Shown: in pieces, positions 1 through 6,000 of the stretch
How positions within the stretch are numbered: position 1 is the stretch's first letter
Layout of the letters: every line of letters begins with the position of its first letter
Assembly (NCBI GenBank): GCA_045105515.1
Contig: JBGCDR010000041.1
Span: forward strand, 1 to 10,502
Direction of reading: 5' to 3'
Source: Oligoflexales bacterium
GTDB lineage: Bacteria > Bdellovibrionota_B > Oligoflexia > Oligoflexales > Bog-1112
DNA: 10,502 bases
Position numbers: made by a program

Positions 1-3000
1 TTTAATCATAGCATGTTGATATTACATATATATTATATGGCGGTTTTTTCTGTTTTTACATCATATCTTTTGCGGTTTCAGTGATTATACATGGAAAGTA
101 GGTGTTAATGGGAGCTTAATCTTCGTCTTGCCAGTAATAAACAACACCTAATAGCAAAGCATCTCTTCGCCGAGCTGACTGAATATGGAGTTGAAATCCT
201 CCGGTTTGATGGATCAATTTGGAGAGCTGTACCTGATCAAGAATCTATAAAGAGAATCTTGAAATCATTCAATTTAGCTGCCAATAATTTATAATTATCC
301 ACTTGATTTTAAGTTTGAATAATAGGGTATAATCAATAAAATAAGGCTTAAAAATGAAGAAACTGATTTTAATTGCATTCGTAATGTTTGAAGGTTTACT
401 ATTAGCTAATAATCAATCTGATACTAGATTCAAATCTTTCCAAATTGATAGCTGGAATACCCGCTATAATGAACTTTTGAAATTTTATCAGATTTATCAG
501 CATGTAAATGTGCCTCACACCTATCCCGCAAACCCTCAACTCGCCAGGTGGGTAAAGCGTCAAAGACGACAGCACAAACTTTTAGAAGAAGGTCATTCAT
601 CGACACTCAGCTTTGAGCGTTTCAATCGACTCAATGATATTGGTTTTATATGGAATTCTCATGAACAGAAGTGGCAAGAGATGTACAGGCAATTAAGAGA
701 TTTTTCCATCAACAACGGTCATTGCAATGTTTCATCCAACAACCCCAATAAAAAACTAGCTACTTGGGTAAAATGCCAACGAAGACAATACAAGCAATTA
801 ATGTCTAAAAAATGCAGCTCTATGAGCCAAAGTCGTATTGAACAACTAGAAAGCATTGGTTTTATCTGGAATGGCAAATTAACCAATAATATCGAAAATC
901 AGCTAACAGAAGACGATTTAAGGTATTTCTCCCATGAGTGGGAAAATGACCCATTAAACTTGTTAGAATGAATAGTCTAGCTTTAATTTAAACTAGGTTC
1001 ATTGGGTTCTATATTTCTTGGCATGTCAGAAGGGATGGAAAGAAGATTTTGAGCATAATCTCCTCCTAATTCACCTTCATACCGATAAACATATGCAGAA
1101 TCTACATACATCAACTTACTATTCTGATTTTTAGAAGTAAATTTTAACTTGAATGAAAACTGGATATCGTCTTCGTTACCTGCAAATGGAACGACCAATA
1201 TTTTAGAAGGAAATTGAAGAGATTTCTTTGAAATCTCACCAGCAATATCAACCCAGCCATCAGAACTAGATTCAGGATTCGCTTCAACTTCCATGACAGC
1301 TTCAAAACGATCTGGATTTGCAAGTTCCTGAGACAATTCAAACTCAGAAGCTTCAATATCAATCAATGCAACATTCCTTAAACCACCACTAACATGATAG
1401 AAAATCTTGATCAGTTTCCCTGTCTTATTTTTTATTGATAAAGAAGAACGGAAGGAAACACCCCAAATACTGAATGAACTCTCATTAATCTCGGGAATGA
1501 TATAAGTACCATCTTCATTTACATTTATATTGATTTCATTACTTTTGATCGTTCCACCCCATCCATTTTGAATGGACCAAAAATACTCTACTGCAAGTTC
1601 GCTTGTTTTTAGATTGGTATAGTTGCTAATTTTGTAGTGCCTTGCCGGCTGTTGAAACCTTTCGGCCATTAAGGTGGAAGAAAACACTGAAAGATAAACC
1701 AATAACAAATATCTCATACAATCCCTCCTACATTCTTTTTTTATAATTATAACCTGCCAATATACTAACCGTTTCATCTGTTATTACAACTCATACTCAA
1801 TTATGGCTGATTAATTCACAAACAATGCAGTCTACAAATTTTTTGTGGCGATTTTACTTCTGTTGGCATTGGGAGCTGATATGAGATAGAAGCATGGCTT
1901 TATTAAATCGTTTCAAGATAATTAGGTGGCTCAAATTATCCACTGCTCAAGTATGATATTAGGCCAATAATAATAGGCAGCAAGACAAGAAAAATAATCA
2001 ATGCGATTCGATTTTTATTAGGTTTATCCTTGAGAGCCTTTGGCATTATCTGAGAATTCTGAATGGTTTTCGTGAGAGAAAACTTGTCATTATTCTGGTT
2101 TTCAGGCTTGTTCATCTAGAATCTCGGTAGTATTTACTTTTGCCAATTAAATTGACAAATTACGAAATAATTATAGCACGATTCTTGATGAAATCCATCG
2201 AAACTCTCATTTGCTCTGCAAGGCAATTGAGACCAAACTAAGCTCCTGTATTTGTTTCGTTAACAAGGTGCAACCGACTTCTCAGCTCAACAATTTCAGT
2301 GGAATCAATTTCAAGACCAAATTCTCTTGCTGCATTTTGGTAAAACTGGTTTTTGCTATCATCATCGAGTTTTAAAGTATAGCGAAATCTCTTATGGTTA
2401 TACTCATAATAGTCAAAGTAAGTACGTTCTATAGCATTAACTAGGGCCGCAAATGCCACTGACGCAGCTGGAAATGTTATAAAAAACGACTCATGCTGCG
2501 ATAACTCTGTAACAAAAAGTGCATTCTGATAAATTGGAGTTCCCAAAGAACTATTAGTATTTATAAGTTTCATAAATCTTAAAAGGTAATCGTCTTCAAG
2601 AGGCGGATTAAGCCAATACTCCAAAGACTCCATGATCTTCAGTTCTTCTTCAGCGATGCGCTTGGAGTCAAACTTTCCCCTGCTAAGTTCAGCCATTGCT
2701 TCAATACCAACCCTCCGAGGTTCCTGAGTTTTGAAAGCAAAATAAAGTGCTGTTGTCGCCGCCAATTGGAATTCTTCTTTAGTGCTAATTTTAGTTTCCG
2801 CCAAATAACGATCCAATATTTTAATGGCAAAAGCTACAACTTTACGATTGATATCAAAGTGGTCCACAACCTGAAAAGCCCACTCACAAATTTTTTCCCT
2901 CCAAAGAGGTGTAATTTGTGACACAGATTCGCCAGAGGAATCACTATCGTAAGTGTCCTCTGGAAAGTAGTATTCAACGAGGTATGTTTCTGATTCCCGC

Positions 3001-6000
3001 CTCTGCATAACCTTAATTTGCTCAATCACCATTTCTCGATCAATTTTCATACTCTGCTCTACTGACATTTCCCCATAACCGATTGTATCAGGTTGTTCTG
3101 CTGATATTTCCGCAAAAGCGCTTGTATCAGTCAGTTCTTCTGGCATTTCCCCAAAAGAGTTTGTATTGGTAAAGGTGACACATAAAAAAAGCAGAATTAA
3201 AAAGGATTTCACAAACACTAAACATTTTCCTCAATAGCTAACACACAAATTAAGTAATCAATCCCCCCAGTTCTTACGAAAATATGTGGGTTTTTACAAG
3301 CAATAATTCCTTATGAATCCATAAAAACACCTTGTAACAAGCTATTATTTAACACCTATTCTTCCTATTTAATTCTCAATATAGGCTCTGAACACGACCT
3401 AAGTAGGATTCAAGGATTGTTTTTACCACATCTAAGGCTTACTTTACAATTTCCGTCGTTCACTGTTGATAGGCATGAGAATTCATTATTTAAACTTGCG
3501 AAATGTTAGATAAATGAGGAAGATAAAACCGCCTTTTTTTGAGTTCATTATTGAGGTAATCCTGATGCTCAACTATTTTTTGTTTTTTCTTTTAGCTATT
3601 TTTCCCTTATTTGTATATGGAACAGAACCCGAGAATAAGCCCCCAATACTCGAAATAGCAGATGATCTGACTTTCAGAATTTTCGGCTTTCTCAAAGAAG
3701 AAGAGCTTGTTGATTATAGCGAAAGCAATAAATCCAGTCATAGATTGTTTGGTGCATATGTATCCTCACCTGTAGATAGTCCAAATGGACAGAACTTACG
3801 TAAATCCAGTTATTTTCACATAGTGGTCGAAAATGACCTTTGTTTATTTTTAAATGAATATCTGAAAAAAAAACAGCACACTCCGATATCAACGATTGAA
3901 AATATTGTCGAACTTTCTAAAAAATTTCCCAATATCTTATTAGAAATTTTACTAAAAGCTGATCCAAAAAACCATAAACAAAGCTATGCCCAGCTCGAGT
4001 ATTTCTTCAATACCACTTTTGCTATGGATAGGATAATTTCTCATTTACCTGCATTTAAATCTAACCATGAGAACTTAGCAAGTGTGCTAATTGAATTATT
4101 AACTTGGACACACATTTGGTGGAGTAAGGCAAGAGAAACTGTAATCAAAGAAATAAAAGAACAATTAGACGACCATCTGGCACAAGATATAAGCCTTCAA
4201 ACCTTCGATCAGCTGAATCTCATAATCGAGCAAAGAGCTGGTGGACACATAAGAGACCAATTATGGGATCAAGTTTGGGACAAAGTTGGCAATGAATTAG
4301 ATATATTTATCTGGGATACAGCATTCCAAATTGAGCAACTAAATTCGAACCCTTCTGTGATAACTCTTAAGCACTTCCCTTTTCTCTTAGCGCATAAACA
4401 AGGAACGCTAGACGAGATGGTGAGATCGGCTATGGATTATAGCTTCATGATGTACCAAATGGAAAATATTGTGCTTAGAAATTCGGAATTCTTTCTTGAA
4501 CAACATAGAAATCTAGCTAACACTATTTTATTTAATTTGCCTTCTAAACAGATTAAAGATGCTCTAAGATCCATAATGCCCCCCCAAAACCAAACCATTT
4601 TTTAGTTGAAAGCTATTTACAGGTTATTAGAAATAATACTTTTTCCGTGCAGAAAGAAAATTCTTTGAATAACCCTTTATCCAAAGGAGCCTAAATTATT
4701 GCTCCATTTTGTTAGGGCGCTGCTTAGTTTTGACCGGTATATTGGTTTGGACATATAGTCATTCATACCCACTTCAAGGCACTTTTCTTCATCACTAAGC
4801 ATAGCATTTGCTGTCATAGCAATAATAATTGGTTGGCGATTCAAATTTAATTGGCGGATCAACTTTGTGGCTTCATATCCATCCATGACCGGCATCTGAC
4901 AGTCCATAAAAATCAGGTCATAGGTGTTCTGCTCTACCATTGCAACCGCCTGTTTTCCATTAACTGCTGTGTGACAATTAATTTTGAATTTTTCGAGAAA
5001 AGAAAGTGCCAACTCCCGATTAATAAGGCTATCCTCAACCAACAAAACACTTAACTCGGGAAACTTTATTTCTTCTGGATTTTTCATTATTTCATTTGTC
5101 TCTAAATTATCTACAGCATTTAATTCAAGCTCAAAGTAAAAATGACAACCAGTTCCGAGGGTACTCTTTACCTCTATTTTACTAGCAAATAGCTTTGCCA
5201 GTTTTTGAGATATGGACAATCCCAATCCTGTCCCACCAAATTTTCTTGTGGTGGAAGCATCTGCTTGAGTAAAATCTGCAAACACGTTGCTTAGCTCTTT
5301 CTCAGCAATCCCAATTCCGTCATCCTCTACTGCAAAAAAGACTTTATGCTTGCCAGGTCTCAAAGCTCTGCTTTTCACCCGAAGAATTACCAGACCATTC
5401 TGTGTAAACTTTATAGCATTGCTAACCAAATTGGTGAGAATCTGAGCTAAGCGGTTTGAATCTGAGCTCACAAACCTTGGCGTCCCTTCTTCAATTTCTA
5501 GATGAAAGTCTATACTTTTTTCAAGAGCTCGTGCTTCAAACAATTGATAAATAAATTTAAGCTGCTTGTGAAGATCAAATGGCTGCATATCAAGAGACAT
5601 AATTCCTGCATTGATTTTGGATATATCCATAATGTCATTAAGTATTTTCATCATCGTCTCCCCAGATTGGATGATGGTTGACACTATTTTTTCTTGAGCT
5701 GAGTCTAAATTTTGATCTAGGAGTAAATCTGCATTACCTAGTACCCCATTCATAGGAGTACGGATTTCATGACTCATGTTAGCTAAAAACTGAGATTTTG
5801 CTGTACTAGCCTTCACAGCTTCTTCCTTCGCTAATAGTAATTTATGCTCGTTAGCTTTCTTTTCGGTAATATCTTGAATAGTTCCTCTGAGGCTTTTAGA
5901 TCCTTCAGAATCAATAGATACGGTGCCCACGGTTTTTATCCATATATTTTTTCCACTTCTGGTGATAAAGGGAAGATCCAAATTCCAACCTTCATCATAT

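Follow-up and report, generated by a model that had tools for sequence, protein, structure and literature searches.

A diatom-type cyclin with a predicted export signal in an Oligoflexales bacterium, a possible effector of host cell division

What use would a bacterium have for a cyclin? The question arises from a gene on a 10,502-bp contig of an uncultured marine Oligoflexales bacterium (GCA_045105515.1, contig JBGCDR010000041.1), which was analyzed over its entire length and is referred to here as the window; the genome to which it is assigned is 90.9% complete, with an estimated contamination of 4.8%. The survey's boldest reading was that the bacterium captured a diatom cyclin and uses it as a secreted effector that binds host CDKs. 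We know of no bacterial process that uses cyclins, and the literature yielded neither a bacterial cyclin nor a report of a cyclin domain among the eukaryote-like effectors of intracellular bacteria, in line with the survey's remark that bacterial cyclin effectors are undescribed.

The description of the product as a two-lobed cyclin of 326 aa is borne out. The first fold scores 63.1 bits against Pfam Cyclin_N over residues 97 to 203 (curated cut-off, 23 bits), and the AF2 model (pLDDT 84.4, pTM 0.80; 115-row alignment) consists of two tandem five-helix cyclin folds with helices at residues 104 to 198 and 208 to 300 (pLDDT mostly >90). Foldseek searches of the PDB returned CDK-bound cyclins A, D1, E, and B at E 3e-8, with TM on target reaching 0.84, and the alignments to these two-lobed cyclins span 255 to 290 columns. 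At the sequence level, phmmer searches of the PDB matched human cyclin B1 (2b9r; E 1.8e-8, residues 102 to 263) as well as cyclins E1, D1, and A2 and herpesvirus cyclins. In the 115 rows, no variation is seen at R107 and D136, and conservation is at least 90% at L152, K163, and E192; the same five columns are invariant or nearly so in alignments A1 and A3. K163 and E192 align with a Lys and a Glu of cyclin B1, which correspond to the CDK-contacting residues of the cyclin box in the cyclin A-CDK2 literature. An insert in the second fold (at about residues 266 to 285) is common only to the window cyclin and its relatives P0113 and P0114 in alignment A1. As to an N-terminal destruction signal, the protein has no KEN, and its sole RxxLxxxxN motif falls within the final helix (residue 315); an N-terminal D-box or KEN is a mark of mitotic cyclins and does not define all cyclins. 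The Shine-Dalgarno motif had been given as GGAG and needs correction, as the sequence reads GAGG.

Table 1. Features of the window (positions along the 10,502-bp contig)
Feature	Position	Strand	Description
Multi-copy repeat, contig end	1..140	.	Leftmost 130 bp also present on 27 further contigs of the genome
HA-domain protein, 205 aa	354..971	+	Signal-peptide-like N-terminus and two HA (PF03457) domains; Pfam HA 129 bits, 2 stretches
Orphan, 244 aa	983..1717	-	Signal-peptide-like N-terminus, hydropathy 2.35; duplicated with HA gene on contig C282
Cyclin gene	2238..3218	-	326 aa; GTG start 3216-3218, stop 2238-2240; ORF list and translation
Second cyclin fold (residues about 208-300)	2319..2597	-	AF2 helices 208-300; Foldseek alignments to two-lobed cyclins
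First cyclin fold (Cyclin_N, residues 97-203)	2610..2930	-	Pfam; holds R107, D136, L152, K163, E192
Signal-peptide-like N-terminus, codons 1-23	3150..3218	-	One Lys, hydrophobic core, then polar stretch ending S-F-G
Ribosome-binding motif GAGG	3229..3232	-	10 nt upstream of cyclin GTG; read from sequence
Orphan, 346 aa	3565..4605	+	Hydrophobic N-terminus, hydropathy 2.87; longest frame from 3514
Hybrid histidine kinase	4677..6821	-	HisKA, HATPase_c, receiver (Pfam); bacterial context
Single-domain response regulator	7279..7629	+	Pfam
Membrane histidine kinase	8176..10020	-	Pfam HisKA and HATPase_c; bacterial context
Multi-copy repeat, other contig end	10360..10502	.	Rightmost 130 bp also present on 42 further contigs

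Several lines of evidence support the conclusion that the cyclin gene belongs to the bacterial genome and is not a diatom contaminant. Its GC3 (0.334) matches that of the genome (0.337 ± 0.043), and its CAI percentile is 46, compared with 0 to 2 for four diatom homologues. All three assembly runs gave one 10,281-bp contig, with no differences, in which the cyclin is joined to histidine kinases. The repeats at the two ends of the window are common to the bin, with 97 to 100% identity to 69 other contigs. Most matches to them also lie at a contig end (28 of 29 for the left 130 bp and 41 of 43 for the right), and read depth is very high at positions 1 to 351, from short high-depth pieces over 1 to 124, and at 10180 to 10502, again from short high-depth pieces. 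Wrongly binned or chimerically assembled diatom DNA is an explanation that we regard as close to refuted, despite the contamination estimate and the fact that the contig is short and slightly AT-richer than the bin (GC of 0.351, which the survey had put at 0.35, versus 0.383). Besides the identical assemblies, the shared repeats, and the bacterial codon use, the tetranucleotide distance of the contig is unremarkable (rank 204 of 323), the gene is intronless where many diatom genes have an intron, it carries a ribosome-binding motif and a predicted signal peptide, and cyclin genes also occur in four other genomes of the order.

The ancestry of the protein points to diatoms. An exhaustive phmmer search gave 3,504 matches at E ≤ 1e-3, the best nonself match being Thalassiosira exigua KAL7547856.1 (E 2.1e-57, 38% identity). 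Full organism names were available for 14 among 110 matches, all of them diatoms, and an organism name was attached to 7 of the 30 clusters looked up, again diatoms in every case. Likewise, in trees of 88 and 52 rows, every neighbor of the window cyclin that bears an organism name is a diatom. In the careful 52-row tree, the window cyclin groups with P0113 and P0114 (support 99/76), and all five cyclins with export signals form one moderately supported group on long branches (82/88; 78% of bootstrap trees), which falls between two diatom subfamilies that both contain Cyclostephanos; P0138 (XP_002176760.1) sits in a neighboring subfamily. Descent of the window cyclin from the diatom cyclin radiation is thus supported, as is the earlier statement that its closest named relatives are diatom cyclins, and we infer a bacterial origin for P0113, P0114, and P0180. 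The window cyclin and two unnamed relatives form a clade whose stem measures about 1 change per site and whose members share 36 to 44% identity, with the cyclin-box residues invariant throughout. Because of this long stem, the identity of at most 44%, and the fully ameliorated codon use, we judge the capture to be old.

The same genome carries a second, shorter cyclin-box gene, as had been reported (C317:4203-4868, equal to L002 1234-1899; 221 aa, Cyclin_N 46.7 bits). Across the order, Cyclin_N was found in 5 of 95 genomes, including this one, but the distribution is patchy: the A2 profile was matched by 2 of the 131 genomes of the phylum; a genome of the same genus that is 94% complete (G012) gave no match to that profile, and the cyclin copy of G053 is on a 2.2-kb contig.

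A Sec-type N-terminus that is missing from the eukaryotic relatives is supported for the window cyclin, in keeping with the survey's description of it as signal-peptide-like. Its maximum 10-residue Kyte-Doolittle mean is 3.13, whereas the median for 224 eukaryote-type relatives is 0.55; the prediction is made by hydropathy score only and requires translation from the GTG. In the public gene call (P0002), which begins at Met25, the signal peptide is absent. AF2 renders codons 1 to 23 as a lone helix with pLDDT <50. Hydropathy of at least 2.0 was reached by five of the six scored cyclin-domain ORFs of Oligoflexales genomes versus 4 of the 224 eukaryote-type relatives. Among the clade mates, P0113 lacks a signal and P0114 reaches a hydropathy of only 1.74.

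The surroundings of the gene had been described as histidine kinases and response regulators, which is true of the contig from 1.5 kb away, but the immediate neighbors are two export-signal orphans and the HA-domain gene. The HA-domain gene, next but one to the cyclin, has six organism-named relatives, all diatoms (42 to 50% identity), a product hydropathy of 2.66, and an 87% paralogue on contig C282, where positions 133 to 1940 of the window have an 89% DNA duplicate. Neither the 244-aa nor the 346-aa orphan has a Pfam family over the cut-off or a usable Atlas match. The product of the response-regulator gene beside the second cyclin on C317 (L002 ORF 443-784) resembles, by eye, that encoded at 7279 to 7629.

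The genome looks host dependent, with six full-length genes for NTT nucleotide importers. Ankyrin repeats occur in eight ORFs, and there is one Ras-family domain. Sec alone delivers proteins to the periplasm. The genome encodes two type II secretion (GspD) secretins over the cut-off, and in the 90.9% recovered we found no type III secretin over the cut-off and no type VI sheath protein TssC.

The reading that we favor, tentatively and with a probability of about 40%, is that a long-held diatom cyclin has been reused as an exported effector acting on the CDK machinery of the host. Because an export signal sits on a diatom-type cyclin, the protein may tamper with the division of a host alga, as some viruses do. 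An Oligoflexales ancestor would long ago have taken the gene from the diatom-specific cyclin radiation, retaining it under selection, and the captured gene would have acquired a bacterial start signal and the Sec-type signal peptide. The preprotein would then pass the inner membrane via Sec and leave the cell, most simply by the encoded type II system, and, with the bacterium on or inside a diatom-like alga, the mature two-lobed cyclin could encounter host CDKs and bind them through its conserved cyclin-box face. The host cell cycle might in this way be pushed to, or held at, a stage favorable to the bacterium, a nucleotide-rich stage that supplies the six NTT importers being one option. The host presumably could not switch the cyclin off because it has no N-terminal destruction box. 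Of the survey's original proposal, bacterial residence, diatom descent, and the Sec-type N-terminus are retained, with the revisions that the capture is old and that the partner may be bacterial.

A bacterial partner comes into consideration because this genome also encodes a CDK-like kinase with a predicted export signal, and because a CDK-like kinase and a cyclin are fused in a related genome. The cyclin, with the same origin and export, would then be the regulatory subunit of that kinase (on contig C106), and the two would form a self-sufficient enzyme phosphorylating host proteins beyond host controls, a possibility that we consider somewhat unlikely. The kinase (335 aa) has a predicted signal peptide, also conserved in P0321, a relative with 48% identity, and a GAGGA motif, similar to the GAGG of the cyclin, precedes its TTG start. 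In the PDB the kinase is matched best by CDK3, CDK2, and CDK1 (E 7e-44 to about 2e-39), and it retains the catalytic Lys, Asp, Asn, and DFG. In the PDB alignment, HRD is changed to HGD, with His and Phe at the T160 and T14 positions, respectively, and activation by a host kinase would therefore be unneeded; an exported ATP-dependent kinase is sensible only where the compartment holds ATP. A Rosetta-stone hint for the pairing comes from a genome of the same family, G007, in which a single 551-aa protein combines a signal peptide with a CDK-like kinase and a Cyclin_N domain. On the other hand, the PSTAIRE helix of the C106 kinase is almost wholly replaced, with only the Glu left, whereas the window cyclin retains a diatom-type CDK face. 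Among the 94 other genomes of the order, none has a close orthologue of the kinase, which is unlinked to the cyclins in the assembly. The fused cyclin of G007 has about 20% identity at best to the other tree rows and a very long branch, and it may have arrived already fused, as protists have CDK-cyclin fusions (available parts of PMC3019232). An extended form of this account, which we rate as unlikely, has an Oligoflexales lineage inside diatoms exporting a complete cell-cycle kinase of its own, made of a CDK-like protein without the eukaryotic on/off sites plus stolen diatom cyclins, with kinase and cyclin fused in a sister genus; the host would be held in a nucleotide-rich phase and drained via the six NTT importers. 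If true, this would be the first instance of a bacterium commandeering the eukaryotic cell-cycle engine by mimicking the engine itself.

Two further explanations dispense with host CDKs. The cyclin might serve the bacterium itself, for instance as a scaffold in the envelope or periplasm or as a regulator linked to the adjoining two-component systems, with no eukaryotic host involved. Cyclin or CDK genes do adjoin histidine-kinase or response-regulator genes at all three loci examined (the window, C317, and G007), and the gene has long been retained in bacteria, but the export signal removes the protein from the cytoplasm, where bacterial kinases act, the conserved residues are those that serve CDK binding in eukaryotes, and the genome otherwise has the host-dependent look noted above, which together make such a role quite improbable in our view. 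Still less credit is due to the idea that the gene, transferred long ago, is now a functionless passenger, neutral or decaying, in an insertion-sequence-rich region. The patchy distribution and the multi-copy repeats that flank the segment would fit it, whereas the intact 326-aa frame, the invariance of cyclin-box residues in so divergent a clade, the fully ameliorated codon use, and the confident AF2 model would not, and the signal peptide is a gain rather than a loss.

The effector reading has a counterpart in viral cyclins. Matches to the window protein among herpesvirus v-cyclins (PDB 1g3n, 1bu2, 1jow, and 1f5q) range from E 4e-7 to 1e-4, and viral cyclins, including those of Medusavirus and Clandestinovirus (PMC10583209), are likewise host-type cyclins in a parasite of cells; the logic proposed here, of a cyclin beyond host control, is the same. 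Viral cyclins are made in the host cytoplasm, whereas a cyclin carried by a bacterium requires export and delivery; the window gene also differs in having bacterial two-component genes as neighbors, and a scan of viral contigs found no relatives of it. Legionella-type eukaryote-like effectors illustrate how a eukaryotic gene gained by horizontal transfer is turned against the host, as is proposed for the window cyclin, but they carry a Dot/Icm or type III signal, in contrast to the Sec-type signal assigned here by hydropathy. With the diatom-specific cyclins (dsCYCs; Huysman et al. 2010, PMC2872877, in part), of which 11 are named in Phaeodactylum, the window protein has motifs in common ahead of and within the cyclin box, and its identity to its best 50 matches is 33 to 45%. 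It differs from dsCYCs in being encoded by a bacterium with a predicted signal peptide, and from diatom proteins in its short C-terminus without a long acidic tail and in the insert in the second fold. Integral C-terminal cyclin domains are found on CDKs of Phytophthora infestans, ciliates, and Theileria, according to the sections of PMC3019232 at hand; the G007 fusion has the same order of kinase then cyclin, but it retains HRD and adds a signal peptide where the protist proteins described there have Asn in place of the catalytic Asp, and the window gene, unlike all of these, encodes a stand-alone cyclin. Members of the same order as the window bacterium (FD111 and FD111-like bacteria) enter and multiply within Nannochloropsis cells, as reported in the accessible part of PMC12865303. 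The hosts given there are eustigmatophytes and green algae, as opposed to the diatom proposed here, and cyclins go unmentioned in that part of the account, but with a lifestyle of this type an exported protein would reach the algal cytoplasm.

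The window cyclin matches the Pfam family Cyclin_N at 63.1 bits (cut-off, 23), and its best match in the PDB is cyclin B1 (phmmer, 1.8e-8); next come cyclins E1, D1, and A2, along with four cyclins of herpesviruses. An AF2 model based on 115 aligned sequences (pLDDT 84.4, pTM 0.80) predicts an N-terminal helix at residues 53 to 79, then two folds of five helices each, and a last helix. Foldseek matched the model to CDK-bound structures of cyclins A, D1, E, and B (E value, 3e-8), with TM scores on the target of up to 0.84. These analyses reproduce the figures in the survey's finding, and the second cyclin that it reported in this genome, on contig C317, proved to be real (Cyclin_N, 46.7 bits). 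Residues R107, D136, L152, K163, and E192 occupy invariant or near-invariant alignment columns; K163 and E192 align with a Lys and a Glu of cyclin B1, positions that we take to contact the CDK. Inspection of the sequence found neither a KEN box nor an N-terminal D-box. Around the gene, a promoter scan was uninformative (5 promoter-like sites versus 6.7 expected) and a terminator scan found none.

Features of the window and related cyclin or CDK-like genes in Oligoflexales genomes (hydropathy, best 10-residue Kyte-Doolittle mean in the first 32 residues)
Feature	Position	Strand	Description	Hydropathy score
Multi-copy repeat, left contig end	window 1-140		left 130 bp shared with 27 further contigs of this genome	
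Two HA domains	window 354-971	+	Pfam, 129 bits	
Orphan	window 983-1717	-	no Pfam family over cut-off	
Window cyclin	window 2238-3218	-	ORF, 326 aa, GTG start	3.13
GAGG ribosome-binding motif	10 nt 5' of cyclin GTG	-	sequence inspection	
Orphan	window 3565-4605	+	no Pfam family over cut-off	
Histidine kinases and response regulator	window, from 4677 onward		Pfam	
Multi-copy repeat, right contig end	window 10360-10502		right 130 bp shared with 42 further contigs of this genome	
Second cyclin, same genome	C317:4203-4868		221 aa	3.20
CDK-like kinase with predicted signal peptide, same genome	C106 (L012), 1420-2427		335 aa, TTG start, GAGGA motif	
Predicted signal peptide, CDK-like kinase (HRD kept), and Cyclin_N, genome G007	C342 (L112), 1661-3316		551 aa	2.81
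Cyclin, genome G053				2.51
PHO80-type cyclin, genome G016	L008		337 aa	2.25
PHO80-type cyclin, genome G016	L011		477 aa	1.89

The window spans the entire contig C41 of its genome. The assembly (6.29 Mb in 461 contigs, 90.9% complete) has 4.8% contamination, which had been raised as a concern for a contig this short. That concern is countered by codon use, by an identical contig in three sequencing runs, and by shared end repeats. The codon use of the cyclin gene is that of its host genome, with a GC3 of 0.334 (versus 0.337 ± 0.043 for the genome) and a CAI percentile of 46; four diatom homologues have GC3 values of 0.42 to 0.62 and CAI percentiles of 0 to 2. A 10,281-bp contig in the Logan assembly of each of three runs is identical throughout to window positions 111 to 10391 (depth, 14.5, 37.3, and 46); these runs come from a single study labelled plant metagenome and are possible sources of this DNA, so that they probe chimerism and not independence. 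No RNA runs were among those listed as holding window DNA. Further copies of both end repeats lie almost always at contig ends, and the repeats are probably an insertion sequence that fragmented the assembly. The contig ranks 204 of 323 in tetranucleotide distance. The cyclin gene is continuous, and several diatom gene calls end shortly beyond the first fold, as an intron there would cause, although intronless diatom copies also occur. We regard contamination as an extremely improbable source of the gene.

The diatom kinship proposed for the window cyclin is upheld by its named relatives and by the trees. A word-index search returned 110 matches at E values of ≤1e-5, and the 14 with a full organism name all fall in genera that we take to be diatoms (Mediolabrus and Pseudictyota alone were confirmed against the taxonomy). 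An exhaustive search gave 3,504 matches at E values of ≤1e-3, led by Thalassiosira exigua (2.1e-57); among the 30 representatives looked up, the seven clusters with an organism name are all diatoms (T. exigua, Attheya, Phaeodactylum, Leptocylindrus, Pseudictyota, Cyclostephanos, and Odontella). Two unnamed public proteins, P0113 (278 aa; 44% identity over 237 residues, tblastn) and P0114 (375 aa; 40% over 226 residues, tblastn), have a short C terminus and a second-fold insert in common with the window cyclin. In our careful tree (IQ-TREE, LG+C20, 52 rows; a quick tree had 88 rows), all three proteins group as one clade (support, 99/76). Together with the G053 cyclin and the public protein P0180, they make up a single group of five export-signal cyclins (82/88), which was recovered in 78% of bootstrap trees and has long branches. 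A 33-row crown clade of Thalassiosirales, Chaetoceros, pennates, Attheya, and Phaeodactylum excludes this group in the 52-row tree (97/93), and the group is placed between the crown clade and a second subfamily (Odontella, Pseudictyota, and Cyclostephanos). Since Cyclostephanos is present in both, the flanking subfamilies are diatom paralogues, and the bacterial group branches among them, which makes the transfer an old one from the diatom lineage. A close Thalassiosirales origin, with a recent Thalassiosira donor, is excluded by the branch that separates the bacterial clade from this crown group. A metagenome scan with a profile of the window cyclin and its relatives yielded 158 relatives, with 80 loci kept; all 18 longer loci inspected were diatom-type, with no further bacterial context among them. 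A companion alignment found no related loci in genome contigs or viral contigs, in a search whose peptide pattern would miss the window's own motif too.

Cyclin_N occurs in 5 of the 95 genomes of the order, the window's own included, and in 3 of the 15 other genomes of its family. The window cyclin type itself matches 2 of the 131 genomes of the phylum, with no match in G012, a genome of the same genus. The fusion gene of G007 adjoins a histidine kinase gene, and the two G016 proteins have C-terminal PHO80-type (PF08613) domains behind hydrophobic N termini; L011 also contains threefold internal repeats and, upstream, a third cyclin-like fragment. Hydropathy scores of at least 2.0 were found in five of six cyclin-domain proteins of Oligoflexales genomes (the G012 gene, whose start is ambiguous, left out) and in 4 of 224 eukaryote-type relatives (median, 0.55), one of which, P0180, was later placed with the bacterial clade. 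P0114 and P0113 scored 1.74 and 0.93. The window cyclin carries a predicted export signal that depends on the GTG start, because the public gene call begins at Met25.

By the same score, three neighbours of the window cyclin have hydrophobic N termini. The six organism-named relatives of the HA protein are all diatoms (42 to 50% identity), and the gene has an 87% paralogue on contig C282, inside a 1.8-kb duplicate that pairs it with a 244-aa orphan bearing a predicted export signal (window 133-1940 and C282:11511-13328; 89% DNA identity). The ORF upstream of this pair is intact on C282 and cut at the repeat boundary in the window, and the ORFs that follow the module on C282 are presumably IS66-like. 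A 64% relative of the HA protein, P0441, lies on a 7,041-bp contig that matches that of P0113 in size and source, which suggests that the linkage of HA gene and cyclin is conserved. Searches of the ESM Atlas with both window orphans gave no usable match. All three loci examined (window, C317, and G007) have a gene for a histidine kinase or a response regulator beside the cyclin or CDK gene, and the response regulators beside the two cyclins of this genome look similar in a purely visual comparison.

The C106 kinase matches CDK3, CDK2, and CDK1 best in the PDB (7e-44 to about 2e-39), and its predicted signal peptide recurs in P0321, a public relative with 48% identity. It has HGD in place of HRD, a His at the T-loop Thr position (T160), and a Phe at T14, and it keeps the Glu alone of PSTAIRE. 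In P0321, aligned by eye, the T-loop position is an Asp, which could mimic phosphorylation. The nearest named relatives of the C106 kinase are CDK20- or CDK7-like proteins of varied eukaryotes (~32 to 35% identity) and are not diatom-specific. An order-wide search with it matched ordinary ~320-aa kinases in 32 other genomes; the three inspected carry an H-S-D-L-S motif and are not CDK-like. A search of the window's genome for CKS (PF01111) found none and was uninformative, as its control likewise gave no match.

The same genome encodes six full-length NTT/TLC nucleotide transporters (C74, C181, C166, C40, C393, and C190; 389 to 677 bits) and two GspD secretins over cut-off, with no type III secretion secretin over cut-off and no TssC found. 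Further eukaryote-like genes encode ankyrin repeats (eight ORFs, on C56, C32, C260, C153, C333, C434, C220, and C419) and one Ras-family GTPase domain (C88:842-1318; 112 bits, 471-aa frame).

An exported cyclin makes sense only in a eukaryotic cytoplasm, still more so an exported ATP-dependent CDK-like kinase, and the six nucleotide importers point in the same direction. Oligoflexales that enter and multiply within algal cells are described in a published report (PMC12865303). For these reasons we rank first a model in which the window cyclin would be exported, delivered to a host, and bound to host CDKs, a chain whose export, delivery, host, and binding we infer, and we give action on host CDKs a probability of about 0.4. 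The C106 kinase offers a possible partner within the bacterium, and a complex prediction for it with the mature window cyclin scored 0.00, a result that came without controls and weighs neither way; service to the bacterium's own kinase seems to us unlikely. A purely bacterial role, for a gene set among histidine kinases and a response regulator and bearing a predicted export signal, is more doubtful still, and we consider a passenger gene very unlikely.

If action on host CDKs is the true model, the window cyclin would represent a new class of bacterial effector and would provide a molecular handle on bacterium-diatom antagonism, which bears on carbon flux and on the dynamics of blooms. Research on the diatom cell cycle would then also gain, as tools, natural cyclins and kinases that lack regulation; in that field, the large family of diatom-specific cyclins is as yet little understood.

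Bacteria disturb host cell cycles by toxins and enzymes, and cyclin piracy is a textbook viral trick. Searches of CC-licensed PMC papers and bioRxiv preprints turned up neither a bacterial cyclin nor an effector with a cyclin domain and, as far as they reached, no case of a bacterium's own cyclin or CDK used against a host cell cycle. To our knowledge, a signal peptide followed by a CDK-like kinase and Cyclin_N has no bacterial report. The nearest published parallels are viral cyclins (PMC10583209) and protist CDK-cyclin fusions (PMC3019232). The G007 protein has the same layout as the oomycete, ciliate, and Theileria fusions in the latter, but the protist forms described there have a dead catalytic Asp, whereas the HRD motif of G007 is intact.
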